Positions 1,406 to 32,340 of a stretch of 39,184 nt of DNA are shown here, piece after piece. The notes beneath the pieces are model-generated. The model had not been told where the DNA came from. It saw only the letters and a program-made list of their open reading frames with translations, and ran no database searches. Both the position numbers and the translations under genes were made by a program. Source of the DNA: Nannocystis pusilla (GTDB lineage: Bacteria; Myxococcota_A; Polyangia; Nannocystales; Nannocystaceae); NCBI RefSeq assembly GCF_049337375.1, contig NZ_JBMPIV010000015.1. One strand, 5' to 3'. Each line of letters begins with the position of its first letter. Position 1 is the first letter of the stretch.

Positions 1406-1419
1406 GGTCGGCGCCTGCG

Positions 1420-1495
1420 GGCCTGTCCGCGCGGACAGGCCCGGGGACACCTGTCCGGTGGAACATGTGCCAGTACACCTGTCCGCAAGGTCATC
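1420..1495. repeat. Palindromic array A: five 14-bp units (CCTG/CAGG/CATG cores), also readable as 28-bp direct repeats ACACCTGTCCG...
   Basis: cctgtccgcgcggacagg is a perfect 18-bp palindrome. Cores recur every 14 bp (cctg-N10-cagg-N10-cctg-N10-catg-N10-cctg-N10-catc). The array spans the convergent 3' ends of CDS 299..1405 and CDS 1491..2357. Confidence 0.6.
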
Positions 1496-3244: not shown

Positions 3245-4096
3245 CTACGCCGGCACGAAACAGGCCCCGATGCTCTCGAACCCGGGCGCGGGGCTCGGAA
3301 ACAGCGGTTCACAGAGGGAGGGCGACGCGCACTGGGCGTCGCCCTCGTTCGTGGCGCAGGTCGAGGTGCAGCAGCTGGAAGAGCCGCAATTCGGCACCAG
3401 CGCCCCCGGCATGCACACGTACGTGGGGGCGCAGCCGCGGCCGTTGAACTCGGAGCAGTTGGCGCCCTCGGTGCCCATGTCGACGTCGAGCAGCATCTCG
3501 CAGACGAATCGATCGGTGCCCTGGCGACAGCCGAGGTTGGGCGGACAGATGGCCACGAGAGGATCACAGCTGTCCGCGCAGTAGGTCGTGCCGCTGAACG
3601 GACTGGTGACGCACAGGCCCGGGTCGCAGTCGATGTCGTTGCGGCAGAGCGAGAAACAGAGGCCGGAGGTCGGATCGTCCTGCGTCGGCGAGAGGCACAC
3701 GGTGCCGGCGCCGCACGCGTCCTGTCCGCTCTCGGGCGCAGGCACGCACGGCTCGAGCGGCAGGATCGCGCTGTCGTCGGGCACGCACTTGAAGTGGTTC
3801 TGCAGGCCGCCCTCGCTGATGGCGGTGCACTTCTGTCCTTCGGGACATGCGGGAGTTCCGGACGGTTCACAGTCGTAGACCGGGTTGAGGTCCGGCGGCG
3901 GCTCGGGCGCTCCCGTGGTCGGCTGAGTGTCGCCCCCGCCGTCGGTGTCGGTGTCGCTCTCGTCGTCGCCCTGGTTGCCGGCGGTGTCGTCGTCGTCGTA
4001 GGGGACACGCTGACATGCCCCAAAGGACAGGAACGCGAGGACAGAGACGAGCCGGGCGGCGGTGACGCCGGGCCCGCGGAGCTGCGCGTCGAGCAT
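3245..4096 (-). CDS. Secreted Cys-rich lipoprotein (Asp/Thr-rich linker, then about 30 Cys)
   Basis: ATG at 4096 (MLDAQLRG...). Signal peptide with lipobox-like LSFGAC, then DDDDTAGNQGDDESDTDTDGGGD, then a Cys-rich domain. The ORF-track extension to 4936 is a repeat-driven artefact. The gene is convergent with TetR at a 4-bp gap. Confidence 0.6.
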   Translation of the reverse strand: MLDAQLRGPGVTAARLVSVLAFLSFGACQRVPYDDDDTAGNQGDDESDTDTDGGGDTQPTTGAPEPPPDLNPVYDCEPSGTPACPEGQKCTAISEGGLQNHFKCVPDDSAILPLEPCVPAPESGQDACGAGTVCLSPTQDDPTSGLCFSLCRNDIDCDPGLCVTSPFSGTTYCADSCDPLVAICPPNLGCRQGTDRFVCEMLLDVDMGTEGANCSEFNGRGCAPTYVCMPGALVPNCGSSSCCTSTCATNEGDAQCASPSLCEPLFPSPAPGFESIGACFVPA

Positions 4097-4189
4097 GGGC
4101 TCACAGTAGCAGGTGCCCGCGCGCGCGGCCCGATGCGTGCCAGCGTGAGGGCGTGGGGTCCGATCGCGGACCGGTATGGCGGTCGCGGC

Positions 4190-4365
4190 CGCGGACTGCT
4201 GTCCGGATGACGCCGCTGCAAGGGGCGCAGGTCGCGACGCAGCTCGACTCGTCGTGCGGCGGACTGTTGTCCGCGAAGCCGCTCGCCGTCGCAGCGCATG
4301 GGCTCGCCGGACTTGTGTCCGATGCGAGTGCGGCGCACGAGCTCGCCGGACTTGTGTCCGATGCG
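4190..4365. repeat. Four GGACTNNTGTCC palindromes plus a 39-bp direct duplication (gagctcgccggacttgtgtccgatgcgagYgcggcgc)
   Basis: ggactgctgtcc, ggactgttgtcc and ggacttgtgtcc x2 are seen directly. Period is 39 bp between the last two. Confidence 0.5.
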
Positions 4366-4619
4366 AGCGCGGCGCCCGAGGTCTGTTGCGGCGCTCGCCA
4401 TGCATCGGGGTTGATGGGAGCGTCGGCTTCGGGTGCAGCGCGACAGGCTGCACACGAGGTCTGCAAGTCGGGTGATGCGTGCTGCCAGCGCTTGCGCGAG
4501 GAGTTCGAGACGAGGCGCTCCCGCGATCGATCGCGCGTCGACCGAGAGCCCGAGGCGCTCGAGGCGGGCCGAGCAGGCGAGCCTCGAGCGAGAACTCGGC
4601 GCGCTCGAGCGAACGGTGT

Positions 4620-4905
4620 CGATGACGATGCGCGGCGTTCGAGTAAGTCGCCATGAGGACGATGCGCTCGAGCGCTCGAGCGTGTGGGGACGAGGACGAT
4701 GCGCTCGCGCTCGCGTGAGCGACGATGAGGACGATGCGCTCGCGCTCGAGTGAGCGACGATGAGGACGATGCGCTCGCGTTCGAGGGAGCGACGATGAGG
4801 ACGATGGCCTCGAGCTCGAGTGAGCGGCGATGAGGACGATGCGCTCGCGCTCGAGTGAGGGACGATGAGGACGAGCACTCGATCTCGAGTGGCGATGAGG
4901 GCGCT
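4620..4905. repeat. Tandem array of about 8-9 copies of a 35-bp unit GACGATGAGGACGATGCGCTCGCGCTCGAGTGAGC
   Basis: Unit starts at 4721, 4756, 4791, 4826 and 4861 give an exact 35-bp period. Degenerate copies flank them. The unit is built from GACGATG and CGCTCG sub-repeats. There are no unique spacers. Confidence 0.8.
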
Positions 4906-4959
4906 CGCTCGTGCGCTCGCGCGTGCGTCGACGCATATGCTCGCGCGGACGAGCGAGGG

Positions 4960-5140
4960 TCGACGAGGACGACGCGCTCGCGCGTCCAGGGAGCGTCGAC
5001 CAGGGCCTGCGCTCGCGCGTCCAGCGAGCGTCGGCCAGGACGATGCCTCGCGCGCCCGAGTGAGCGTCGGCCAGGACGATGCCTCGCGCGCCCGAGTGAG
5101 CGTCGGCGAGGACCAGCGCTCGCGCGTCGGCGAGCCGAGC
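4960..5140. repeat. Tandem array of about 4 copies of a 35/36-bp unit GAGCGTCGGCCAGGACGATGCCTCGCGCGCCCGAGT
   Basis: gagcgtcg anchors at about 4991, 5026, 5062 and 5098. Confidence 0.7.
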
Positions 5141-5189
5141 GCTCCGAGCGATGGCGTGAGGGCTACGGCCCTGGGCTTGCGAGCGGTCG

Positions 5190-5675
5190 CTACAGGGCCG
5201 CGGTTCGCAGGTCAGCGATGGCGGTGGCGCAGGCGTGGACGATCGTGCGGGCGTGGTCGAGGCCCTGCTGCGCCGCCTGGTTGGGGCCGCGGTGGAGCTG
5301 GACGAGGACCTCGGCGCCGGCGGAGCCGGCGGTGATGGCGACGGGGATCGCCATCAGCGCGCGGGCGGCCTCGGCGGCGCGGACTCCGAGGGGGACCTGG
5401 TTCTCGGGGCCGCTGTCGCCGAGCAGGCGCAGGTGGTCGACGTAGCTGCGGCCCCAGCGCGACTCTGCGGCCTCGAGGGCGTCAGGTGTGCCCTGGGCGT
5501 GCGCCCAGGCGACCAGGACGGCGTTGAGGGCCATCCCGGCGGCCCGGCGGGCGTGGGTGAGGGCGGTGCGGCGGACGGCGACGTGGTCGGCGCCGGCCTC
5601 GAGCTCGGTCAGCGCGGACCGCATCCAGGCGTCCGCGTCGAGGCGCCACAGCCAGTGGGCCTCGGCCTCCGTCAT
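5190..5675 (-). CDS. HEPN-like hypothetical protein
   Basis: ATG at 5675 overlaps the upstream gene's stop (ATGA). The 161-aa product has a helix VRRTALTHARRAAGMALNAVL resembling the conserved HEPN helix (R..Y.A..HA.RA.L pattern), with R-x4-H present. The N-terminal part of the ORF-track frame is low-complexity artefact. Confidence 0.45.
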   Translation of the reverse strand: MTEAEAHWLWRLDADAWMRSALTELEAGADHVAVRRTALTHARRAAGMALNAVLVAWAHAQGTPDALEAAESRWGRSYVDHLRLLGDSGPENQVPLGVRAAEAARALMAIPVAITAGSAGAEVLVQLHRGPNQAAQQGLDHARTIVHACATAIADLRTAAL

Positions 5676-6277
5676 CCCGACGAGCTCCCGGTGCTGGTGG
5701 AGCTGGTCGAGTCGGTGGTCGAGCCCGTGGTGGTCGTCGTCGAGTCGGTCGAGGTGCTCGTGGTGGACGAGTCTGTGGTGCTCGAGGTCGTGGTCGTGTC
5801 GGTCGTCGACGTAGTGGTCGTGTCCGTGGTCGACGAGGTGGTCGTCGTGTCGGTCGCGGTGCCGTCGGTCGCGGTGCCGTCGGTCGCGGTGCCGTCGGTG
5901 GTCGTGCCGGTCATCGACGAGGCGGTGGCGGAGCCGTCGGTCGGGCCGCTGGCGCTCTCGCTGAGGCTGTTGCTGCCCGGGCCGGCGATGTCGCGCTTGG
6001 ACGGGAGGTCGTCGCGGATCGGCATGTCGGGCAGGCCGGGACCGGCGGAGTCGGTGTCGACGCTCTCGGAGACGACGCACTGGCCGATGACGCCCGGCTT
6101 GAAGCAGGCGTCGCCCGACAGGATCTTCTCGCCTTCGGCGTAACACTCGAGGCCGGCGCCGCAGTCGCTGGCGCAGCGACACGGATCGCCGGCCTTGGGC
6201 CGGCAGCCCGCGAGCGCGACCAGCATGGCCAGCGCGACGCCGGAGGCGAAGGTCTGGCGCGGACGGGGCGGCGTCAC
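5672..6277 (-). CDS. Lipoprotein with a Cys-rich N-domain and Thr/Ser/Asp-rich repetitive C-terminus
   Basis: GTG start at 6277 overlaps the greA stop. Lipobox LVALAGC, then CRCASDCGAGLECY, then TDGTATDGTATDGTATDTTTTSSTTD... low-complexity repeats. Confidence 0.6.
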   Translation of the reverse strand: MTPPRPRQTFASGVALAMLVALAGCRPKAGDPCRCASDCGAGLECYAEGEKILSGDACFKPGVIGQCVVSESVDTDSAGPGLPDMPIRDDLPSKRDIAGPGSNSLSESASGPTDGSATASSMTGTTTDGTATDGTATDGTATDTTTTSSTTDTTTTSTTDTTTTSSTTDSSTTSTSTDSTTTTTGSTTDSTSSTSTGSSSG

Positions 6278-6762: not shown

Positions 6763-10013
<3,251 letters not shown>

Positions 10014-10996: not shown

Positions 10997-11386
10997 TCAG
11001 GAGGTGGTGTCGCCGGTGGTGTCGCCGCCGGTGGAAGTTGCGCCGGTCGTGGTGGTCGCGCCCGTGGCGTCGGTCGCGTCGGTCGTGCCGGCGGTGCCGT
11101 CGCTGTCGGTGCCGGTCTCGGTGGTCGTCTGCGGGGGCGGGGGCGGCGGATCGCCAGGGTTCGCGCCGGTGGCGCCGAGCTTGCACGCGCCCACGGAGTC
11201 GTCGTCGGGCGTGTCCTCGCGGTGGCAGCAGCCGTCGATGCGGCACTCGTAGCCGGCCGGACACTCGGCCGCGTCGTCGGGCTCGCAGGCGAACTGCACC
11301 GGGTCGCTGGGCGCGTTGAAGCAGGCCGACAGCGCGGCGGACCCGAACAGCAGGCCGCTCAACATGGCGTTCGCGACATGGCGCAT
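10997..11386 (-). CDS. Small secreted lipoprotein, Cys-rich then Thr/Asp/Gly-rich
   Basis: MRHVANAMLSGLLFGSAALSAC signal and lipobox, AAGGAA Shine-Dalgarno before the ATG at 11386, Cys-rich core, TTTETGTDSDGTAGTTDATDATGATTTTG tail. Confidence 0.5.
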   Translation of the reverse strand: MRHVANAMLSGLLFGSAALSACFNAPSDPVQFACEPDDAAECPAGYECRIDGCCHREDTPDDDSVGACKLGATGANPGDPPPPPPQTTTETGTDSDGTAGTTDATDATGATTTTGATSTGGDTTGDTTS

Positions 11387-11407
11387 GGGTCCTGTTCCTT
11401 CGGCCAT

Positions 11408-12822: not shown

Positions 12823-12875
12823 CAGAAGGCGCGGGCCGGGCGAGGCCCCGCGCCGGGGCGATCTCGGCGGCGCGG

Positions 12876-13190
12876 GCATGTGCTCGGGGACATGCTCTCT
12901 CGGGCATGTCCGCCGGACCATGCCCCATCAGGCATGTTCTTTGGAACATGCCCGAACAGGCAGGCAGGCCGGCGCGGGAGCAGGCGCCGCCGGGTGAAGC
13001 AGAGGTCCCAGCCGCGCTGCCCGGGCGTGGCCTTGCGGACATGCCTGAACGGCGGGCGGGAGCAGTCGAGCCGCGCTGCCGGTGGCGTGGTCCGGCGGAC
13101 ATGCTCGAACGGACAGGTCAGCCGGTGCGCGGGGTGGGGCGCGGGAGCAGGCGGCGCTGGGTGAAGCAGAGGCCCCAGCCGTGCGGCTCC
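12876..13190. repeat. Palindromic array B: six CATGs at an exact 14-bp register (12877..12953), then nested direct repeats of about 50-80 bp containing cggacatgcYYgaacgg
   Basis: catg-N10 repeated five times is seen directly. GGCATGTTC-tttg-GAACATGCC is a perfect inverted repeat. gggagcaggcgScgcYgggtgaagcagaggYcccagccg recurs about 165 bp apart. Confidence 0.65.
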
Positions 13191-14386
13191 TCGGGCGGGC
13201 GCGCGGGGCCGCTGACGAGGCGGGGGCCCTCGGCGCGGGCGGGCGGCGGGCGCTCGCCGCCGGCGTGGACGCGCACGAGGGCGATGTCGAGGTGGCCGCG
13301 GCCGTCCATGTCGAGCGGGAGCTCGGCGACGGTCTCGGCCTCGAGGGCGAGCGGGCCGCCGGGGGCCTCGACGGCCAGGCCGGTGCGAGCGGGCGCGCGG
13401 CCGGGGCGGCGCTCCTGCGTGACCCCGAGGTCGCGGATCGGGACGACGCCGCCGGGCCGCTGGACGAAGCCGCCGGACAGGCTGACCCACGGGAAGCGGG
13501 CGGTGTGCACCCACGTCCGCAGCGGGCCGAGCGTGGCGAAGCACTGCATGGCGGCGTCGCTGGCGCCCCAGTCGCGCACGCCCCAGTTGTGGACGCGCAG
13601 GGCGGCGCCGCCGAAGGCCCGCAGATCGCGGCCGAGGGTGATCGTGCCGTGTAGATCGCCGGCCTGGACGTAGCCGCGGAGCGGGTGGCGGCGCACCGCG
13701 CGGAGCAGGCGAGTGTCCCAGGCGGCGGCGCCGAGCTGGCGCGCGAGCAGGTCGGGGTCGTCGTCGGTGCCGGGGACGAACGGCAAGAGGCCGGCGAGGA
13801 AGGTGAGGTCGAGGCGGGCCTCGATCGACTCGGCGGGGGCGTCGCCGGCGGGGCGCAGCGGTCGGCCGCGCGGGTCGTGCACGTGCAGGGCGCCGCGGTA
13901 ACGCAGGGTCCAGGTGCGCAGCGGCTCGACGCAGTCGAAGCTGAGGCCGCCGACCGACCAGCCGCGCTCGCCGTCGCCGCGCAGCAGCGCCTGGCCGCCG
14001 GGGAGGCAGTAGATCGCGGTGGGCGTGAAGAGGGTGAGCCAGACGCGGTGCGCGTCGCGGCCGGGCAACCACTCGAGCCGCGCGAGCACGGCGAGCTCGG
14101 GCTGCACGCCGACGAACACGAAGTCCTCGGCGAAGTGCGGCCGGCCGTCCCAGGCGTGGCGGGCCTCGTCCTGCGGGCGCGGCCACTCGGCGGCAGGTCG
14201 TCGCAGTACGGCCCAGCGCGCGATCGCGGCCTTGACCCCGCGGCGCAAGAGCCCCGAGAGGCCGGGATCGGCGATGTCGGCGCCCAGCTCGAGGCCGGGG
14301 TCGTCGCTCGGCTCGGCGAGCCCGACGTGCGGGCGCAGCGGCCGGGGCCCGCGCGGGTCTTCGGAGTGGGAGTCGCGTCCGGACAT
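13118..14386 (-). CDS. Hypothetical protein
   Basis: 422-aa ORF with balanced, non-low-complexity composition, unlike the overlapping 12705..14414 and 12928..14886 frames. The 3' end runs into repeat array B. Confidence 0.45.
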   Translation of the reverse strand: MSGRDSHSEDPRGPRPLRPHVGLAEPSDDPGLELGADIADPGLSGLLRRGVKAAIARWAVLRRPAAEWPRPQDEARHAWDGRPHFAEDFVFVGVQPELAVLARLEWLPGRDAHRVWLTLFTPTAIYCLPGGQALLRGDGERGWSVGGLSFDCVEPLRTWTLRYRGALHVHDPRGRPLRPAGDAPAESIEARLDLTFLAGLLPFVPGTDDDPDLLARQLGAAAWDTRLLRAVRRHPLRGYVQAGDLHGTITLGRDLRAFGGAALRVHNWGVRDWGASDAAMQCFATLGPLRTWVHTARFPWVSLSGGFVQRPGGVVPIRDLGVTQERRPGRAPARTGLAVEAPGGPLALEAETVAELPLDMDGRGHLDIALVRVHAGGERPPPARAEGPRLVSGPARPPEEPHGWGLCFTQRRLLPRPTPRTG

Positions 14387-15367: not shown

Positions 15368-15520
15368 GCTGTCCGAACGGGCAGGTGCGGCGCGGCGCGT
15401 GCCTGCGGGCCGACTGGCTGTCCTCGCGGACAGGTGAACAGGGCCGCTTCTTGGCTGTCCGTCCGGACAGGTGCGGAGCAGCTGTCCTCGGGGGCAGGCC
15501 TGGCTGTCCTCGCGGACAGC
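15366..15520. repeat. Palindromic array C: five copies of gCTGTCC-N4-GGACAGGtg at spacings 48/37/28/22 bp
   Basis: ctgtcctcgcggacagg and ctgtccgtccggacagg are seen directly. The array lies between convergent gene ends. Confidence 0.65.
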
Positions 15521-16926: not shown

Positions 16927-16945
16927 GATGTCCTTGAGGACATGT
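16927..16945. promoter_or_regulatory. Single ATGTCC-TTGA-GGACAT palindrome in a divergent promoter region (candidate operator)
   Basis: gATGTCCttgaGGACATg has the same architecture as the array units. It lies about 115 bp upstream of the GlxA-type regulator start and about 285 bp upstream of the ureohydrolase start. Confidence 0.3.
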
Positions 16946-17059
16946 GCGTCCGCCATGGCGCTCGATGGCTCGAGCTGGGCGCATCGGTGGCGAGAAGTGA
17001 GCACTTGTTGGCGTTTTCGCCACTTGCCCGGGCGCGGCGAAGAGTGCGAGCGTGGGAGC

Positions 17060-18063: not shown

Positions 18064-18150
18064 CGGACATGTCCTGAGGGTCAGTCGACTCAGGGCTGGC
18101 CTTGCGAACATGTCCCGGGTGCCAGCGCCCACAGGCTGGCCCGAGGGACA
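18064..18150. repeat. Palindromic array D: about 7 units at a roughly 14-bp register with partly mutated CATG cores
   Basis: ggacatgtcc occurs twice and gaacatgtccc once. Intervening cores are degenerate (cagt/ctgg/cagc/tggc). The array lies between convergent gene ends. Confidence 0.6.
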
Positions 18151-18166
18151 TGTCCCCGACGCCAGC

Positions 18167-21840: not shown

Positions 21841-22887
21841 ATGGGCCTGCTTCATCGTCTGTATGCTCGCGCCGCGCCCGAGGTCTGGGAGACCGAGACG
21901 CGGCTGCTGCACGCCCTCCGGCTGGTGCGCCGGCCGGTCGCGGTGCAGTGGGTCGCCACTGCGATGTGCGACCTCCGCTGTCCGCATTGCTACTCGGGCG
22001 CGGGCAAGCGGGCCGAGGGCGAGCTGACGACGCAGGAGGCGATCCGCCTGGTGGTCGACGAGCTGGTGGCGCTCGGTCGGCCGACGTTCGTGATCGCGGG
22101 CGGGGAGCTGCTGCTGCGCCGCGACATCGCCGAGATCGTGGCGCACGCGCGGGCGCAGGGGCTCGAGTGGGCGATGCACACGCACGGCGGACATGTCCCC
22201 AAGTTCAGGTCGCTGTTCGAGCGTCACCCGCCGACGCTGGCGGCGATCAGCCTCGACGGCGAGGCCCGGCAGCACGACCTGTTCCGCGGGCGTCAGGGCA
22301 GTCACGCGGCGGCGCTGGCTGCCATCCGCACGCTCAAGGAGTGCGGCTGTCCGGAGGTCGTGGCGGGCACGACGGTGACGCGCGAGAACGCCGACCGCCT
22401 GGCCGACCTGTTCCCGATCGTGGCGGCCTCGGGGGCCGACTCGTGGGGGCTGCACCTGTTCGCCCCCGAAGGCCGCGGGGCCGAGCACACCGCGCTGTGC
22501 CCGACGCCGGAGCAGCTGCGCCGCGTGGCCGCGTTCGCCCGCCGCAAGCGCGGGCTGTTCCACGTCGAGCTGTGCAACGAGTGGGGCAGCGCGGGCGCCG
22601 ACGATCGCTTCTACCGCGACCAGCCGTTCCTGTGCGGGGCCGGCCGGATCTCCTGCGTCGTCGGGGCCACCGGCGAGGTGCTGCCGTGCACCACCACCGA
22701 CCTGCGCGAGTCGGAGGGCAACGTGCGCGATCGGCCGCTGCGCGACATCTGGACCCGCGGCTTCACGCGCTTCCGCAGCGCCGGCCACCGCGAGTGCTCG
22801 GACGGCCACGAGTGCTGGCTGCAGGCCCGCAACGGCAACCCGTGCCGCGAGCAGGCGTTCGGCGCCTGCCGCAAGGAGGCGGTGTGA
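21841..22887 (+). CDS. Radical SAM enzyme with a C-terminal Cys-rich SPASM/twitch-like domain
   Basis: CDLRCPHC (Cx3Cx2C) at residues about 43-50. Eight Cys in the last about 100 aa (CGAGRISC...C...CSDGHEC...C...C). No obvious N-terminal RRE-sized extension. Confidence 0.8.
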   Translation: MGLLHRLYARAAPEVWETETRLLHALRLVRRPVAVQWVATAMCDLRCPHCYSGAGKRAEGELTTQEAIRLVVDELVALGRPTFVIAGGELLLRRDIAEIVAHARAQGLEWAMHTHGGHVPKFRSLFERHPPTLAAISLDGEARQHDLFRGRQGSHAAALAAIRTLKECGCPEVVAGTTVTRENADRLADLFPIVAASGADSWGLHLFAPEGRGAEHTALCPTPEQLRRVAAFARRKRGLFHVELCNEWGSAGADDRFYRDQPFLCGAGRISCVVGATGEVLPCTTTDLRESEGNVRDRPLRDIWTRGFTRFRSAGHRECSDGHECWLQARNGNPCREQAFGACRKEAV

Positions 22888-23159
22888 GGCGCTGGTGGCT
22901 CGATCTGGGGTCGTTCGCGGTGGCGCTCGCGCTGGCCGCGGCGGTGGTGCTCCGCTGGCGCCGCGGCCAGGTGGCGCTGCTGTCGAGCGCGGCGGCGCCG
23001 GCGATCCGCCTGCTCGCGCTGCTGATCGTGTTCGTGCAGGGCTGCGCCGACCGGCTGCGCGGGCGCGAGGAGCCGGACGGGCAGGGGGCAGTGCCCGGCG
23101 CAGGGCCGGGCTCTAAGGACATGTCGAATGGGGCAGGTCCTTCACAGCAGGGTGAATAG
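22884..23159 (+). CDS. Small two-TM membrane protein, translationally coupled to the radical SAM gene
   Basis: The GTG start overlaps the upstream stop (GTGA). Hydrophobic helices LGSFAVALALAAAVVL and IRLLALLIVFV. The 3' end runs into palindromic array E. Confidence 0.35.
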   Translation: MRRWWLDLGSFAVALALAAAVVLRWRRGQVALLSSAAAPAIRLLALLIVFVQGCADRLRGREEPDGQGAVPGAGPGSKDMSNGAGPSQQGE

Positions 23160-23172
23160 GACATGTCCCAGG
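23115..23172. repeat. Palindromic array E: three 14-bp units ending in GGACATGTCC, which contains the start codon of the next CDS
   Basis: catg-N10-cagg-N10-cagg-N10-catg. The ATG at 23163 is the centre of GGACATGTCC. Confidence 0.6.
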
Positions 23173-24206
23173 AGACAAGTGCTGCGGAGAGCGCCCAGCC
23201 GGCGCTCGGGCCCGACGTGTTCCCGCTGGCCGACGAGGCGGCGCTGGGCCGGTGGGCGCGGCTCGTCGCCGACGACGGGCTCGACGTCGGGCCGGGCAAG
23301 CGATTGGCGCTGGCGCTGGTGCCCGTGCCGGAGGCGACGCCGGCCTCCGACCCGCGGTGGCTGCAGGTCGCGTCCGCCCTCGAGGCGCTGTCCGACGCGG
23401 TCGGCGGCGCCGAGGGCGAGGCGTTTCGCAGCCGCTGGCGGGCCCACGTCGAGGCGCGCAAGGCAGGCGGCGGCGAGACGATCGCCGGGCTGCAGGCGCT
23501 GCTGAGCAGCATGGAGGCGCTGCCGCTCTTCCACGCGGGGCTGGCCGGCTACGTGTGGCGCCGGGCGGCGCCGCTGCCGGGGAGCGCGTCCGTGCGGGCG
23601 GAGCTGCTCGGGCGGATCGAGCGGCACCTGCGGGCCTGCGAGGCGCTGCTGAAGGGCCAGTTCGAGACGGGGCCGATCGAGTTCACGGCGTGGCGCAGCA
23701 AGGCGGCGCCGCCGGTCGGCTACTCGGGGTTGAAGGTGCCGAAGGGCCTGCTGGCGGCGGCGAAGGGGCACTACCCGCAGATCGACGCGGGCACGTGGAC
23801 GACCGAGGCGACGCTGACTCTGACGGCGATCGACGCGGGCGTGACGCTGCTGCGCGCGGGCCGGGCGACGGCGCTGGGGGCGGGGCAACGGTTCACTCTG
23901 GGGCGGCTGGACGTGCTGACGAGCGAACGGCCGGCGAAGCTGCGCCACGATGAAGTGGGGGACATGTCCCTCGGTGCAGGCGCGGTCGTGACCGCGTGGG
24001 ACGTCGGCCCGCGCTTCGCGGGGCCCGGGCGCGAGCGGGTGCAGGCGAAGGTGGCAGCGGCCCAGGGCGGCGACGCGAAGGCGCTCGAGCAGCTGCAGTC
24101 GATCCTGCCGGCGGCGCACCTCGAGATCCGCCGCGCGCTGGCCGACAAGCCGCAGGCGCCCGGCTCGCCGGGGCTGCGGACGCTGCTCGAGCTGTTCGAC
24201 CAGTAG
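23163..24206 (+). CDS. Hypothetical protein
   Basis: 347-aa ORF with balanced composition and no recognisable motif. Confidence 0.5.
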   Translation: MSQETSAAESAQPALGPDVFPLADEAALGRWARLVADDGLDVGPGKRLALALVPVPEATPASDPRWLQVASALEALSDAVGGAEGEAFRSRWRAHVEARKAGGGETIAGLQALLSSMEALPLFHAGLAGYVWRRAAPLPGSASVRAELLGRIERHLRACEALLKGQFETGPIEFTAWRSKAAPPVGYSGLKVPKGLLAAAKGHYPQIDAGTWTTEATLTLTAIDAGVTLLRAGRATALGAGQRFTLGRLDVLTSERPAKLRHDEVGDMSLGAGAVVTAWDVGPRFAGPGRERVQAKVAAAQGGDAKALEQLQSILPAAHLEIRRALADKPQAPGSPGLRTLLELFDQ

Positions 24207-24214
24207 CCGGCAGA

Positions 24215-24285
24215 GCCGGCCTTTGCGGCATGTCACCGAAGACATGCTGCAGGGGACATGTCGCAAGCGACATGTCCCGAAATCA
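24215..24285. repeat. Palindromic array F: four CATGs at an exact 14-bp register, including the near-perfect 24-bp palindrome GGACATGTCGCAAGCGACATGTCC
   Basis: catg-tcaccgaaga-catg-ctgcagggga-catg-tcgcaagcga-catg. The array lies between convergent gene ends. Confidence 0.65.
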
Positions 24286-25595: not shown

Positions 25596-25700
25596 GCTCT
25601 GCGGGGCTCACGCCGGTCGGGCTGCGGAGCTCACGCCGGTCGGTCTGCGGGGCTCACGCCGGTCGGTCTGCGGAGCTCACGCCGGTCGGACTGCGGCCGG
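25596..25700. repeat. Tandem array of about 4.5 copies of the 23-bp unit GCTCACGCCGGTCGGNCTGCGGR upstream of purT
   Basis: Unit starts at about 25606, 25629, 25652 and 25675. Confidence 0.7.
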
Positions 25701-25825: not shown

Positions 25826-28800
25826 TCAGGTGGGCGCGCTGCCGTTGTACATCGCGCTCCACTGGGCGGGGCGGAGGATGGCCCGCGAGGCGAGGTACTG
25901 GTCGGCCTGGGCGATCAAGGTGGCGCCGCCGGGGCCCAGCAGCTCGCCGCGGCGGCGCCGGGCGCAGGCGGCGTGGACCGGCATGTCGGCGGTGTCGAAG
26001 CTGGCGGCGGCGGCCTCGAGGCGGACGAGCGCCTGCTGGATGTCGCCGTTCTGCGCGGCGATGCCGGCCCGGATCAGCGCGGCCATGGCGACGGAGTCGT
26101 GGCGCAGCGCGCGGTCCTCCTCGAGCTGGGCGGCGTCGCGTTCGGCGGCGGCGAGGAGGACGCCGGCGTTGTGCGGCTGCTCGCGGGCGGCCGCGACGGC
26201 GGCGAGGCCCCGCGCGTGGAGGAAGAGGATCCGCTGGCCCTGCCAGCCGAAGATGTACGAGTTCTCGACGGCGACCCAGTTCTCGGCCAGACGCTGCCAG
26301 GCGGAGCCACCTTGCCCTTGGTACAGGTCGCAAGAGGTCTCGAGGAGCAGCGCGAGCATGTGCTGGAAGTGGAAGCCGTCCTTCGACCAGCGGCGCATCG
26401 CCCCGCGCACGCGGTCGCGCGCGCTGGTGATGTCGTCGGCGCCGAGCAGCGCGTAGGCGCTGTAGAGCGCCGACCAGACCTCGCCGCATAGATCGCCGGC
26501 GTCCTCCGACTCGCGCAGCCAGGCGTGGGCGCGGTGGCCGAGCTCGGCCAGCTCGCCGAGCATGAACAGGCCGCGCATCGTGCTCATGCGGGCGAGGTCG
26601 AGCTCCCAGCCGACGCCGACGCAGCGGTCGAGCAGGATCTGGGCGCCCTGCTCGCAGTGCTCGAGCGCGCGGCGCCAGCGGCCGAGCGAGACGGCGGCGA
26701 TGGCGTCGACGATCTCGCACAGGCCGATGAGGCGCGGCTCCGAGAGCTGTTCGGCGAGGCGGCGCGCCTCCTTGAGCAGGGTGGTGCCGCGGCCGACGGC
26801 GTTGGCGGTGCCGCGGCTCATGATCATGGCGCCGACGCCGGCGAGGGCGCGGGCGATCCGCTGCGGCTCACCTGTCTGAAGGGCCAGGAGGAGACCGCGC
26901 TGGTAGAAGCTGTAGCCGCGGATCGGATCGACGAAGGCGAGGCCGACGGCGGCCGACAGGCACACGTCGAGGCGCAGCAGGTCGGCCGGCGGGACCTGCT
27001 CCTCGCGCACCGCGGCGAAGCCGAGGCCGCGCAGGCTGAGCTGCGTCGAGCGAGTGATGATCGACATGTTGGCGCGGCCGGGTGTGGCCGGGTAGCCGAG
27101 GTCGACCTCGACCAGCGCGGGGCGCAGCATCTGCACGCCCTGGTCGATGTTGCCGCTGACGAGGAACTGCTCGCCGGCGCGGCGGCGCAGCTCGAGTGAT
27201 TCGGCCGGCGAGGCGCCCTCGGCGGCGCTGGCGTAGACGGGGGCCGCTTCGGCGCTGCGACCGGCCAGCGCGAGCGCGTCGGCGCGGCGACGCAGGAGGG
27301 CGCGCCGCTCGTCGTCCGGGAGGTCGGACGCCCACGCGAGGGCGCGACCGTACAGCTGGGCGGCGCGGTAGAAGGCGAGTGAAGCGGCGGCCCGCTCGGC
27401 GGCGGCGACGGCGGCACCGTGCGCCTCCTTCAAGGCGCCGGCGGCGTGGAGGTGGTGCGCCAGCAGCTCGGGGTCGTCGGCCGACTGCGCGAGGGCGTCG
27501 GCGAGGGTGCGGTGCAGCTGCGCCAGGCGGTCGCCGCCGAGCTGCGCCAGCACGGTGTCGCGGATCCGGTCGTGGTAGCACTCGACGGTGTCGCCGCTGC
27601 GCGAGGCCAGCGTGCGCAGCAGGTGCTGCGCCTGCAGCTCGCCGAGGACCGCGCGATCGGTGACGCCCGAGGCCGTGAACGCGAGGCTCGGCGGGATCGG
27701 CCGCCCGGCGACGGCGACGATCTCGAGCAGGCTGCGACCGGCGGCGCGCAGGCCGGCGAGGCGGGTGCGCACGACCGCGTCGAGCGAGACCTCGGCCGGC
27801 GCGGCGCCGCGGTGACCGGCGATGTGACGCGCGAGCTCCTCGACGAACAGCGGGTTGCCGCCCGACTCGGCGGCGATCCGGCGCGCCTCGGCGCGCGCGC
27901 TGTCGCTGTCGCGGCCGAGCCGGGCGAGCGCGAGCTCCTCGGCCTGATCGGGCGAGAGCGGCTCGACCAGCAGGTCGCGCACCAGCGCCTTGAGCTCGGG
28001 CCGCGCGCCGAGCCGCCGCAGCTCGCGGAGCATCGGCGCGTCGTCCTCGTCGATGCGGTACGAGCCGATGAAGAGCATCGCCGGCGGATCGGGCGGCGAC
28101 AGCAGCTCGACCAGCAGGCGCGCGCTGTCCTCGTCGCCCCACTGCAGGTCGGCGATCCGCAGCACCAGCGGGCGGCGATCGGCGATCCTCGCCAGCAGCT
28201 CCTTGAGCCCGCGGAAGGCCCGACGCCGCGCCTCTTGCGGGTCGGGGGCGACGAAGTTGCGCTGCGGCAGATCGGCGACCACGGGGGCGCGCGCGAGGAC
28301 GGGGAACAGCCGCGTGAGCTCGTGGATCTCGCGCGGCAGCAGGGCCGCAGCCTCCTCCTGCGGGAGGTGGCGGAGGTGCTGCGCGAGCGCGTCGAGGACG
28401 CTGTCGAAGGCCTTGTACGGCACGCTCTCGCGCTCGTAGCAGCGGCCCTGGAGGACGAAGGCGCGGTCGTTGCGGCGCAGCTCGGCGATGAAGCGATCGA
28501 TGAGCGCGGTCTTGCCGATGCCGGAGCGGCCGCGGACGTACACGCATACCGGCGAGCCGGCGAGCGCGAGCTGGAAGGCGTCGCGCATGGCCGACAGCAG
28601 GTCGTCGCGGCCGACGAAGCGCGCGCCCGACTCGGTGGGCCCGAGCGGGGCCTCGCCGAGGGCCTCGCGGATGTCGGCGCCGCCGAGGCGCGCGGCCGGG
28701 TCGCGCTGCAGCAGGCCCATGCACAGCGCCGCCAGCTCCGGATCGACGTCGGGCACGAGCGCCTGCGGCGGCGCCGGATCTTCGTGCTGCTTGGCGTGGA

Positions 28801-29512
28801 GGATCGCGAGCGGCGGACCGGTGAACGGCAGGCGGCCGGTCAGCGCCTCGTAGAGCATGACGCCGATCGCGTACCAGTCGCTCGCGGGCGAGGCCGGGTT
28901 GCCGGCGGCCTGCTCCGGCGCCATCGTCGCCGGCGTGCCGAGCAGGCCGTCCTCGCCGCCCTCGGCGACGTCGTCGGCGGCGAGGCCGAAGTCGAGGATG
29001 ACGACGCGGCCGTCGGCGGTGACCAGCACGTTCGACGACTTGAGGTCGCGGTGCAGCTTGCCGGCGGCGTGCAGGGCGCTGACGCCGGCGGCCAGCTGCA
29101 GCAGGGCGGGGCGCAGGCGCTCCGGCGGCGGCGCTGCGCCTGGCCTTTCGGACATGCCCTGACGGACATGGTCGACGAAGCTGACGCCGTCGACGAACTC
29201 CATGGTGATGAACCACTCGTCGTCGTGCGAGACGAGCTGGTGGAGGCTGACGAGGTTCGGGTGCGACAGGCCGGCGGCGCTGCGGAACTCGTTCTTGAGG
29301 CGGAACAGCGCGCCCGGGTCGAGCTGGTGCAGGGTCTTGAGCGCGATGGTGCGGCCGCTGTCGCGGTCGACGGCCGCGTACACGACGCCCATGCTGCCGG
29401 AGCCGACCCGACGCACCAGCTCGTAGCGGCCGAGCGGACGCGGAAGGATGTCCTCAGGGACAGGTGGCGTCACCGGCAGCGAGGCGCGGGCCTGGGGCTC
29501 GTCGGGATTCAA
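25826..29512 (-). CDS. Ser/Thr protein kinase fused to an AAA/STAND NTPase and a C-terminal TPR/helical sensor region
   Basis: Hanks kinase motifs (GSGSMGVVYAA, HRDLKSSNVL, DFG, APE). Walker A GRSGIGKT. Long helical C-terminus. TTG start. 1228 aa. Confidence 0.8.
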   Translation of the reverse strand: MNPDEPQARASLPVTPPVPEDILPRPLGRYELVRRVGSGSMGVVYAAVDRDSGRTIALKTLHQLDPGALFRLKNEFRSAAGLSHPNLVSLHQLVSHDDEWFITMEFVDGVSFVDHVRQGMSERPGAAPPPERLRPALLQLAAGVSALHAAGKLHRDLKSSNVLVTADGRVVILDFGLAADDVAEGGEDGLLGTPATMAPEQAAGNPASPASDWYAIGVMLYEALTGRLPFTGPPLAILHAKQHEDPAPPQALVPDVDPELAALCMGLLQRDPAARLGGADIREALGEAPLGPTESGARFVGRDDLLSAMRDAFQLALAGSPVCVYVRGRSGIGKTALIDRFIAELRRNDRAFVLQGRCYERESVPYKAFDSVLDALAQHLRHLPQEEAAALLPREIHELTRLFPVLARAPVVADLPQRNFVAPDPQEARRRAFRGLKELLARIADRRPLVLRIADLQWGDEDSARLLVELLSPPDPPAMLFIGSYRIDEDDAPMLRELRRLGARPELKALVRDLLVEPLSPDQAEELALARLGRDSDSARAEARRIAAESGGNPLFVEELARHIAGHRGAAPAEVSLDAVVRTRLAGLRAAGRSLLEIVAVAGRPIPPSLAFTASGVTDRAVLGELQAQHLLRTLASRSGDTVECYHDRIRDTVLAQLGGDRLAQLHRTLADALAQSADDPELLAHHLHAAGALKEAHGAAVAAAERAAASLAFYRAAQLYGRALAWASDLPDDERRALLRRRADALALAGRSAEAAPVYASAAEGASPAESLELRRRAGEQFLVSGNIDQGVQMLRPALVEVDLGYPATPGRANMSIITRSTQLSLRGLGFAAVREEQVPPADLLRLDVCLSAAVGLAFVDPIRGYSFYQRGLLLALQTGEPQRIARALAGVGAMIMSRGTANAVGRGTTLLKEARRLAEQLSEPRLIGLCEIVDAIAAVSLGRWRRALEHCEQGAQILLDRCVGVGWELDLARMSTMRGLFMLGELAELGHRAHAWLRESEDAGDLCGEVWSALYSAYALLGADDITSARDRVRGAMRRWSKDGFHFQHMLALLLETSCDLYQGQGGSAWQRLAENWVAVENSYIFGWQGQRILFLHARGLAAVAAAREQPHNAGVLLAAAERDAAQLEEDRALRHDSVAMAALIRAGIAAQNGDIQQALVRLEAAAASFDTADMPVHAACARRRRGELLGPGGATLIAQADQYLASRAILRPAQWSAMYNGSAPT

Positions 29513-32254: not shown

Positions 32255-32340
32255 GGGCGTGTCCGAGGGGGCATGCTCCGGAGGACATGCCTGTTCAGCC
32301 ATGCCATGAAGGACATGTCGATACGGACATGTCCTGTCGC
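32255..32340. repeat. Palindromic array G: six 14-bp units at an exact register, ending GGACATGTCGATACGGACATGTCC
   Basis: cgtg-N10-catg-N10-catg-N10-catg-N10-catg-N10-catg-N10-cagc. The array lies between convergent gene ends. Confidence 0.65.

Follow-up and report, generated by a model that had tools for sequence, protein, structure and literature searches.

Phased palindromes at gene ends in Nannocystis pusilla: a candidate family of bidirectional 3'-end hairpins

What are the rows of short palindromes that occupy the ends of genes in a 39,184-bp stretch of Nannocystis pusilla DNA (contig NZ_JBMPIV010000015.1, 72% G+C; the whole stretch is referred to below as the window), and what might they do there? 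An initial annotation of this DNA had noted palindromes of the form CATGTCC-N4-GGACATG at seven sites and had likened them to the repetitive extragenic palindromic (REP) sequences and bacterial interspersed mosaic elements (BIMEs) known from other bacteria. We find that the palindromes share a 10-bp core repeated mostly at 14-bp steps, that neighbouring cores covary as the two arms of a hairpin, and that the arrays lie just past stop codons, above all where genes converge. With a probability of roughly 45%, we favour the reading that they are hairpin elements of gene ends, specific to this lineage and similar to REPs in position and shape, and that they would act as bidirectional 3'-end structures.

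A protein of N. pusilla matches the purT product of the window at 100% identity, and its counterparts in N. punicea and Nannocystis sp. ILAH1 match it at 98-99%. Genes were called from the G+C content at third codon positions (GC3), and the calls were checked against Pfam and against the annotation of syntenic loci.

Results

A palindrome family in a 14-bp register

With two mismatches allowed, CATGTCC-N4-GGACATG occurs 21 times in the window against an expectation of 0.09, which bears out the pattern from which the initial annotation had started. Shorter forms of the motif, each searched with at most one mismatch, are likewise in excess: TGTCC-N4-GGACA was found 25 times (0.8 expected), CTGTCC-N4-GGACAG eight times (0.09 expected) and GGACATGYC 62 times (16.9 ± 4.9 expected). 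Perfect copies of TGTCC-N4-GGACA number 80 in 407 kb, and every other spacing from 0 to 12 returned between none and two. The family is confirmed as genuine and lies far beyond chance, by a factor put at 20-200 overall.

The register was found as clearly. The window holds 152 CATG tetranucleotides, and exact 14-bp runs of them extend over 12877-12947 (six copies), 24229-24271 (four) and 32272-32328 (five), with a single CATG out of register inside the third run, at 32305. Among CATG pairs no more than 60 bp apart, 15 are separated by 14 bp, nine by 28 bp and eight by 42 bp, and no other lag exceeds four; a first-order Markov model predicts 0.55 pairs at lag 14. The seven arrays are as follows, with a strand given for the one that has been assigned to one.

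Array A, 1419..1484: hairpin GGGCCTGTCC-GCGC-GGACAGGCCC (1419-1442), followed by cores with a 2-nt insert, GGACACCTGTCC, GAACATGTGCC and ACACCTGTCC.
Array B, phased part, 12874..12953: six cores in exact 14-bp register, at 12874, 12888, 12902, 12916, 12930 and 12944.
Array C, 15368..15520: five CATG-less hairpins, (G/C)CTGTCC-N4-GGACAG(G/C), at 15369, 15418, 15455, 15482 and 15504.
Array D, 18065..18155: three cores, at 18065, 18106 and 18146, in steps of 41 and 40 bp.
Array E, 23117..23168, plus strand: cores at 23117, 23131 (degenerate) and 23159, in 14-bp register.
Array F, 24226..24277: four cores in 14-bp register, at 24226, 24240, 24254 and 24268, folding as two hairpins of 11-12 bp.
Array G, 32255..32334: six cores in 14-bp register, at 32255, 32269, 32283, 32297, 32311 and 32325.

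A core every 14 bp had originally been ascribed to all seven arrays. This holds for B, E, F and G, and the six units read in the last of these (32257..32335) were recovered as the six cores listed. It does not hold for array A, whose periods vary from 13 to 16 bp because some of its cores contain a 2-nt insert (GGACA-CC-TGTCC), for array C, which is unphased, or for array D.

Core, spacer and hairpin

Alignment of 257 spacers of 10 nt, taken between CATG pairs 14 bp apart, yielded the consensus CATG-Y-C-C-N4-G-G-R-CATG, that is, a 10-bp self-complementary core, GGRCATGYCC, and four free bases. DNA that had not been chosen for CATG contains 106 GGR....YCC words, of which 27 have this tetranucleotide at their centre and five the second-ranking one. 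The positions flanking the core show a weak preference (A/C/T, then G/C/A); the conserved tetranucleotide is the CATG inside the stem. The four loop bases are effectively random. In a comparison of 244 10-nt spacers the commonest occurred three times, and neighbouring units agree at 1.19 of the four loop positions as against 1.08 for units of different arrays, with similar values at lags of one to three units. Since neighbouring spacers are unrelated, most arrays are not recent products of slippage.

The core is slightly asymmetric, GCATGT and ACATGC being favoured over ACATGT and GCATGC (chi-square p = 5e-5), and neighbouring cores alternate between the two favoured forms in 41 cases against 21 in which they do not, as base pairing between neighbours predicts. 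The same alternation is seen by Tandem Repeats Finder as a period of 28 in array B. Complementarity extends over all six variable positions of the stem in 6.0% of pairs of adjacent cores and in 1.4% of random pairs (0 of 2000 permutations). When the first two cores of 104 arrays are laid out as a 12-pair hairpin, 76.1% of the cells are paired (71.7 ± 0.7 after shuffling), double-sided changes number 118 (77 ± 7) and the covariation score is 0.232 (0.165), none of 500 shuffles reaching any of these values; pairing with slid partners attains at most 51%. Base-pair covariation inside the spacers of all neighbouring units was barely over expectation, and the signal emerged once whole cores and array ends were compared. 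Of the six variable positions, successive cores pair at 3.8, 2.2 and 4.4 in four-core arrays and at 3.6, 2.8, 2.7 and 3.7 in five-core arrays, where the middle core pairs more weakly. Paired cores form stems of 10-12 bp with compensatory A-T/G-C changes, and the outer half-cores at array ends are conserved to the same degree as the inner ones.

The element is thus a 24-nt hairpin, core-N4-core, and the arrays are rows of such hairpins in one common register. Each core is its own reverse complement, so that a row could fold in alternative registers and equally on either strand. The CATG-less variant CTGTCC-N4-GGACAG, which makes up array C, has arms that are complementary to each other yet are not palindromic themselves, an arrangement that fits a hairpin and not a palindromic duplex site. 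RNA folding of arrays B, D, F and G gave z-scores between -3.4 and -7.3 on both strands (B, -4.2 and -5.4; D, -3.8 and -3.5; F, -7.3 and -4.5; G, -5.2 and -4.2), and array A scored -1.95 on the plus and -3.43 on the minus strand. On the sense strand of co-directional gaps, G-U-compatible mismatches outnumber A-C mismatches by 30 to 16 (p = 0.054), a weak hint of constraint at the RNA level.

Placement relative to genes

Our gene calls agree with the earlier statement that six of the seven sites lie between convergent gene ends, and each of the six clear convergent gaps in the window holds members of the family. Another two gaps that were called convergent from GC3 (6144-6273 and 11253-11407) have no array and are most likely artefacts of this way of calling genes; on the minus strand, the CATGs at 11363-11384 translate as Met codons within a small secreted protein. 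A census of the window and 38 further Nannocystis loci, in which an array was defined as at least three units and the gap that had ascertained each locus was excluded, found arrays in 8 of 25 convergent, 0 of 36 divergent and 3 of 125 co-directional gaps (Fisher p = 4e-6). Restricting the count to gaps 80-600 bp long gives 6/17, 0/28 and 1/51 respectively, so that a length-matched comparison sets 6 of 17 convergent gaps against 1 of the remaining 79.

In convergent gaps the array usually starts 2-25 nt from each stop codon. In co-directional gaps, 14 of 15 arrays start between -1 and 39 nt past the upstream stop, and the distance to the next start codon ranges from -20 to 1234 nt. This combination of stop-codon proximity and variable start-codon distance identifies the arrays as 3'-end elements. 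The genes between or beside the examined arrays are ordinary ones, encoding kinases, an FAD-dependent oxidoreductase, an SNF2 helicase and a folate enzyme. A search of the 20 kb between 12500 and 32450 for terminators with a U-tract returned two terminator-like sites where 3.3 were expected, that is no excess, in keeping with the initial remark that such terminators are few; one of the two is a chance TTCTTT loop inside array B, and no T-run follows the array hairpins.

Cores are concentrated in non-coding DNA, with 69 in 88 kb compared to 14 in 270 kb of coding sequence. The latter lie in open reading frames (ORFs) at positions 22189, 23960 and 29150 of the window and in loci L006, L016, L049, L066, L073, L097 and L118. 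Ten of the 14 read in frame as x-Asp-Met-Ser, and in some of them GGAC-ATG-TCC may be the true start codon of a gene whose ORF call was over-extended.

Distribution across taxa

A scan for five CATGs at 14-bp steps was run on one genome per species, 185,579 species in all. Among the matches listed, at least 38 rows are from Nannocystis and at least 82 from unrelated taxa. All the Nannocystis rows among them keep the core and change the spacer from unit to unit, whereas all those from unrelated taxa simply repeat one 7- or 14-bp unit in tandem without variation. At least six Nannocystis genomes contain arrays (N. exedens, N. pusilla, N. punicea, N. radixulma, N. bainbridge and sp. RBIL2). In 103 kb of Nannocystis DNA that had not been chosen by pattern, cores occur at 0.66-0.77 per kb (at most one mismatch) and array clusters at about 0.18 per kb; extrapolated from this sampled density, a genome would hold roughly 8,000-10,000 cores. 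Five loci of more distant relatives, with purT 73-83% identical and 69-72% G+C, have 0.09-0.19 cores per kb and one phased array in total. Taken together, these comparisons point to a lineage-specific family. It is apparently also previously undescribed: the window gave no match in Rfam 15 at the gathering score, and in the literature we found no account of such repeats in Nannocystis or other myxobacteria.

A phage or plasmid origin was considered and rejected, as 2.9 million viral contigs yielded only four isolated hairpins. As a separate observation, the only array-like members in two of the more distant loci (L126 at ~9730-9810 and L125 at ~9754; purT 82-83% identical) are situated in a divergent gap, some 240 bp upstream of purT, a position unlike the 3'-end placement seen in Nannocystis.

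Persistence and turnover among relatives

Four syntenic loci were compared with the window, those of N. punicea, sp. ILAH1, N. pusilla CP185339 (L128) and N. pusilla Na p29 (L127, JAPNKE010000002). All five comparable convergent gaps carry family members in these genomes. In Na p29, the closest of them (identity at four-fold sites of purT, 0.97), the arrays are almost identical to those of the window and differ mainly in their flanks and decaying ends; this near-identity gives no support to the idea of hypermutable arrays. At greater distances (four-fold identity 0.91-0.94 for sp. ILAH1 and CP185339, 0.82-0.85 for N. punicea) the number of units and nearly all spacers differ, and the CATG cores and their register are kept. 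The gap of array B, for example, holds six cores in the window and six in CP185339, with unrelated spacers. Over 21 kb of synteny, indels of at least 8 bp are concentrated in the array gaps and include a 64-bp segment with two hairpins. The arrays are thus stable in the short term and turned over by block events in the longer term, with the same kind of sequence always returning.

In the Na p29 locus the kinases, the arginase-family gene and a 440-aa ORF are split, all of which are intact in the window and the other syntenic loci; this suggests indel errors of the assembly rather than biology.

The individual arrays and other features of the window

Array A is bounded by the stop codon of a plus-strand gene (1405) and that of an inositol monophosphatase gene (1491, minus strand). 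Array B, which had been drawn as a single array over 12876..13190, is shorter than that. Its phased part is extended by a degenerate seventh core (CAGG) to about 12967; the DNA from 12961 to 13117 is a strain-specific duplication, and that from 13118 to 13190 is coding. The nested direct repeats of 50-80 bp that had been counted as part of the array do exist, as about 80 bp repeated three times, and are copies of the 3' end of the adjacent gene (13118-14386, minus strand): each repeats its last 45-80 bp and is followed by a core, leaving isolated cores at 13037-13046, 13097-13106 and 13111-13120. The duplication is absent from CP185339, relative to which the window has insertions of 32 and 65 bp and in which the six phased cores stand directly 3' of the stop codon.

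Array C consists of hairpins with arms GGCTGTCC-N4-GGACAGCC, the first of which begins at the stop codon of a TPR gene (15367), while the last ends 8 nt before that of the arginase-family gene (15528, minus strand). A 64-bp insertion with two hairpins distinguishes it from locus L124. Its spacings of 49, 37, 27 and 22 bp closely match the decaying series 48/37/28/22 described earlier; the decay is not conserved in relatives, and we treat it as an accident.

Array D is flanked by the stop codons of an AraC gene (18031) and a FadL gene (18167, minus strand). Each of its core pairs encloses an inner hairpin (CCAGCC...GGCTGG) within 18075-18145, perhaps a further type of hairpin contained in these elements. 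In three of the four relatives (sp. ILAH1 and both other N. pusilla genomes) the orthologous gap also has such inner hairpins, with different loops.

Array E had been placed on the 3' end of one gene and the start codon of the next. An in-frame TAG at 23157-23159 and the ATG of the last core directly after it are indeed present in the window. In N. punicea and sp. ILAH1, however, the array lies within a single ORF of 438-442 aa, where it encodes a linker (E-D-M-S...G-A-G-P-S-Q-Q...E-D-M-S) and the codon in question is GAG or GAA. The TAG could be a true nonsense mutation or a sequencing error, and the ATG that follows it could restart translation (Met-Ser-Gln-Glu). CP185339 lacks 2,051 bp of the window here (~21.9-23.9 kb), comprising a radical-SAM/SPASM gene and most of this ORF.

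Array F lies between a stop codon at 24206 (plus strand) and that of purT (24294, minus strand), and array G between those of a kinase/cNMP-binding gene (32244, plus strand) and an adenylate/guanylate cyclase gene (32401, minus strand). The remaining features are listed below; no strand is assigned to them.

12961..13117: tandem duplication beside array B, about 80 bp three times with internal deletions, 3' end of gene 13118-14386 (minus strand).
16927..16947: single hairpin, GATGTCC-TTGA-GGACATG, in the 5' region of an AraC/DJ-1 gene, a rare member away from a 3' end.
22189-22198 and 23960-23969: single exact cores inside ORFs.
29139..29170: unit pair, CCTGGCC-TTTC-GGACATG-CCC-TGAC-GGACATG, inside a large kinase ORF (25826-29512, minus strand).

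Two tandem repeats of other kinds were also recorded. At 4624-5135, about 14 copies of a ~36-bp unit (consensus GAGGACGATGCGCTCGCGCTCGAGTGAGCGACGAT), each with a small inverted repeat, lie within a 1.3-kb stretch (3879-5234) to which the GC3-based caller assigned no gene. At 25598-25696, between the kinase stop (25826) and the purT start (25490), there are 4.3 copies of a 23-24-bp unit, the copy number of which varies among strains through 24- and 47-bp indels.

Discussion

Comparison with known repeats and terminators

REPs are imperfect palindromes of 20-40 nt that lie outside genes, 3' of convergent or co-directional ones and almost never in divergent gaps (PMC3733652, PMC5581495), and a role as 3'-end structures in termination, pausing or protection from exonucleases has been proposed for them (PMC3733652). 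Neither survey mentions myxobacteria. The Nannocystis family resembles REPs and BIMEs in that it consists of short imperfect palindromes in many copies just downstream of genes, clustered and tending to alternate in orientation, in being restricted to one lineage and in varying between strains. It differs in that the stem is itself a 10-bp palindrome and the units abut in a strict 14-bp register, that the element, at 24 nt (14 nt per step), is at the short end of the REP range, that loops and linkers are unconserved with no abundant master sequence, and that no GTAG/CGTC tag stands beside the stems. Stem-loop palindromes, dispersed copies and extragenic downstream placement are thus all present, and the initial proposal of a REP/BIME-type bidirectional terminator or stability element stands as far as hairpin palindromes at gene 3' ends are concerned, and fails on the tag, the conservation of loops and the master sequence. 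By place, shape and strain variability the family appears to belong near REP/BIME; we do not file it as a member of the REP group or of the systems of REP-associated tyrosine transposases (RAYTs), because two of the REP features looked for, the terminal tag and conservation of the whole element, were not found. A tblastn search for a RAYT with an E. coli sequence as query gave no match in about 0.45 Mb of Nannocystis DNA, roughly 4% of one genome, and is uninformative.

The hairpin-only ('I-shaped') or bidirectional terminators of G+C-rich bacteria offer a second comparison, with G+C-rich stems lacking a U-tract, placement at convergent stop codons and folding of both strands. Such terminators evolve individually, whereas the Nannocystis arrays repeat one stem in a strict register at ~0.7 cores per kb. 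The lack of a U-tract also sets these hairpins apart from intrinsic (Rho-independent) terminators.

Gene-end hairpins as the favoured reading

Situated 0-40 nt past stop codons, the arrays would be reached by transcription from one flank, or from both where genes converge. Neighbouring cores would then pair into a stem of 10-12 bp with the 4-nt spacer as its loop, and such hairpins could pause or terminate RNA polymerase, block 3' exonucleases, or do both, in a 72% G+C genome without U-tract terminators. The fixed stem, the random loops and the lack of a master copy imply that something probably reads the sequence, and the core would on this account be recognized by a sequence-specific factor, either a binding protein or a hairpin-processing enzyme. 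The reader may be a RAYT-type hairpin-processing enzyme, a protein that binds the duplex at 14-bp steps, or another factor.

Several observations weigh against this reading. The function is deduced from the place and shape of the elements, and a plain structural role needs neither one fixed stem sequence nor a strict 14-bp register across hairpins. The stems are imperfect on average, each variable position being Watson-Crick paired in 44-60% of units, and array C and the plus strand of array A fold little better than shuffled sequences (z = -1.4 to -1.9). The wobble asymmetry is marginal and could be explained by strand composition. Arrays are rare at co-directional operon ends (3/125), which is odd for a general terminator, and the 14 cores inside called ORFs compare with 1.8 in codon-shuffled sequence.

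Alternative explanations

A serious, if doubtful, contender is that the arrays are binding sites on double-stranded DNA. A dimeric protein would recognize GGRCATGYCC or TGTCC-N4-GGACA and polymerize in 14-bp steps, with successive dimers about 120 degrees apart and three units making four helical turns, and the resulting filament at convergent gene ends might serve as a roadblock, a topological barrier or a loading site. A conserved core among random 4-nt spacers is what such a protein would leave behind, and the same can be said of the absolute specificity of the spacing (80 copies at N4, 0-2 at others), the intact cores at array ends, the survival of cores and register through spacer turnover between genomes, and the over-representation of single cores even within ORFs; the register is moreover held across hairpin boundaries, which folding does not demand. 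Independent sites would not, however, covary with their neighbours as reverse complements. The stems also reach 10-12 bp with compensatory A-T/G-C changes, and the arms remain complementary in the CATG-less variant, which has no palindromic core. No candidate protein has been put forward, and none of the 36 promoter-containing divergent gaps carries units.

The half-site geometry of CRP/FNR-type regulators, which the initial annotation had invoked, belongs to this discussion. The 5-4-5 spacing agrees, since FNR/CRP operators (TTGAT-N4-ATCAA) are likewise 14-bp inverted repeats with 5-nt half-sites and exactly four free bases. The half-site itself, TGTCC, is different from both TTGAT and the TGTGA of CRP, and the location is wrong for an operator, as the units lie past stop codons in head-to-tail rows and are missing from divergent gaps; their arms also extend and covary to 10-12 bp.

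A related proposal, which we hold to be rather unlikely, is that of a dedicated and selected gene-end punctuation that is not mobile. A Nannocystis-specific protein would read GGRCATGYCC as duplex or hairpin and assemble cooperatively at 14-bp steps, and its assembly past stop codons would end or insulate convergent transcription in a genome without U-tract terminators. This would account for the conserved core, the random spacers, the strict register and the long persistence in the same gaps without a master copy.

We consider it unlikely that the family is purely selfish, that is, miniature mobile DNA of the REP or REPIN (REP doublet forming a hairpin) type copied by a RAYT-like or other transposase with no benefit to the host, with the pile-up in convergent gaps reflecting tolerance of insertions there. 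A density of ~0.7 cores and ~0.18 clusters per kb, restriction to one lineage, a 3'-end and convergent location typical of REPs (PMC3733652), and hairpins gained and lost between strains, with indels of at least 8 bp clustered in the array gaps, would all suit mobile DNA. Yet there is no master sequence (the top spacer accounts for 3 of 244), neighbouring loops are no more alike than those of other arrays, the GTAG/CGTC tag is missing, independent insertions do not yield strict 14-bp phasing, and the two closest strains have almost the same arrays. No transposase was seen near arrays in the sampled loci, a weak point given that they cover ~4% of a genome.

Far less probable is an uptake-signal-like word under molecular drive, in which DNA with GGRCATGYCC would be favoured during transformation or recombination. 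The DNA uptake sequence (DUS) of Neisseria is a conserved word of about 10 nt that occurs about once per kb and forms hairpins downstream of genes where it stands in inverted pairs, which also serve as terminators. The likeness extends to the variable surroundings of the word, its lineage specificity and its presence within genes (14 cores in ORFs against 1.8 expected) as well as between them. The Nannocystis word differs in being self-complementary and far more strongly non-coding (69 in 88 kb against 14 in 270 kb), and phased rows of up to 6-8 copies are, to our knowledge, not a feature of DUS or of uptake signal sequences (USS).

Chance, compositional bias or a slippage minisatellite can be dismissed, even though self-complementary cores amount to direct repeats on which 14-bp slippage is mechanistically possible and locus L085, with six near-identical 14-bp units, looks like a recent expansion: shuffled and Markov-simulated controls are off by one to two orders of magnitude, and spacers differ in every unit of the Nannocystis rows listed, adjacent ones being no more similar than unrelated ones, with L085 the sole exception.

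Significance

How transcription units are closed in U-tract-poor, very G+C-rich bacteria is poorly understood, and this includes the large-genome myxobacteria that are mined for natural products. The presence of one recognizable, sequence-defined element at the convergent gene pairs of the window makes gene-end closure directly testable. In practical terms, the arrays provide strain-variable markers, and they are likely to hamper assembly, PCR and heterologous expression of Nannocystis gene clusters. In this REP-like family the stem is fixed and the loops are free, the phasing is exact and a master copy is absent; such a combination misfits the copy-and-paste model of REPINs, and could reveal another way in which dispersed palindromes are created and maintained.

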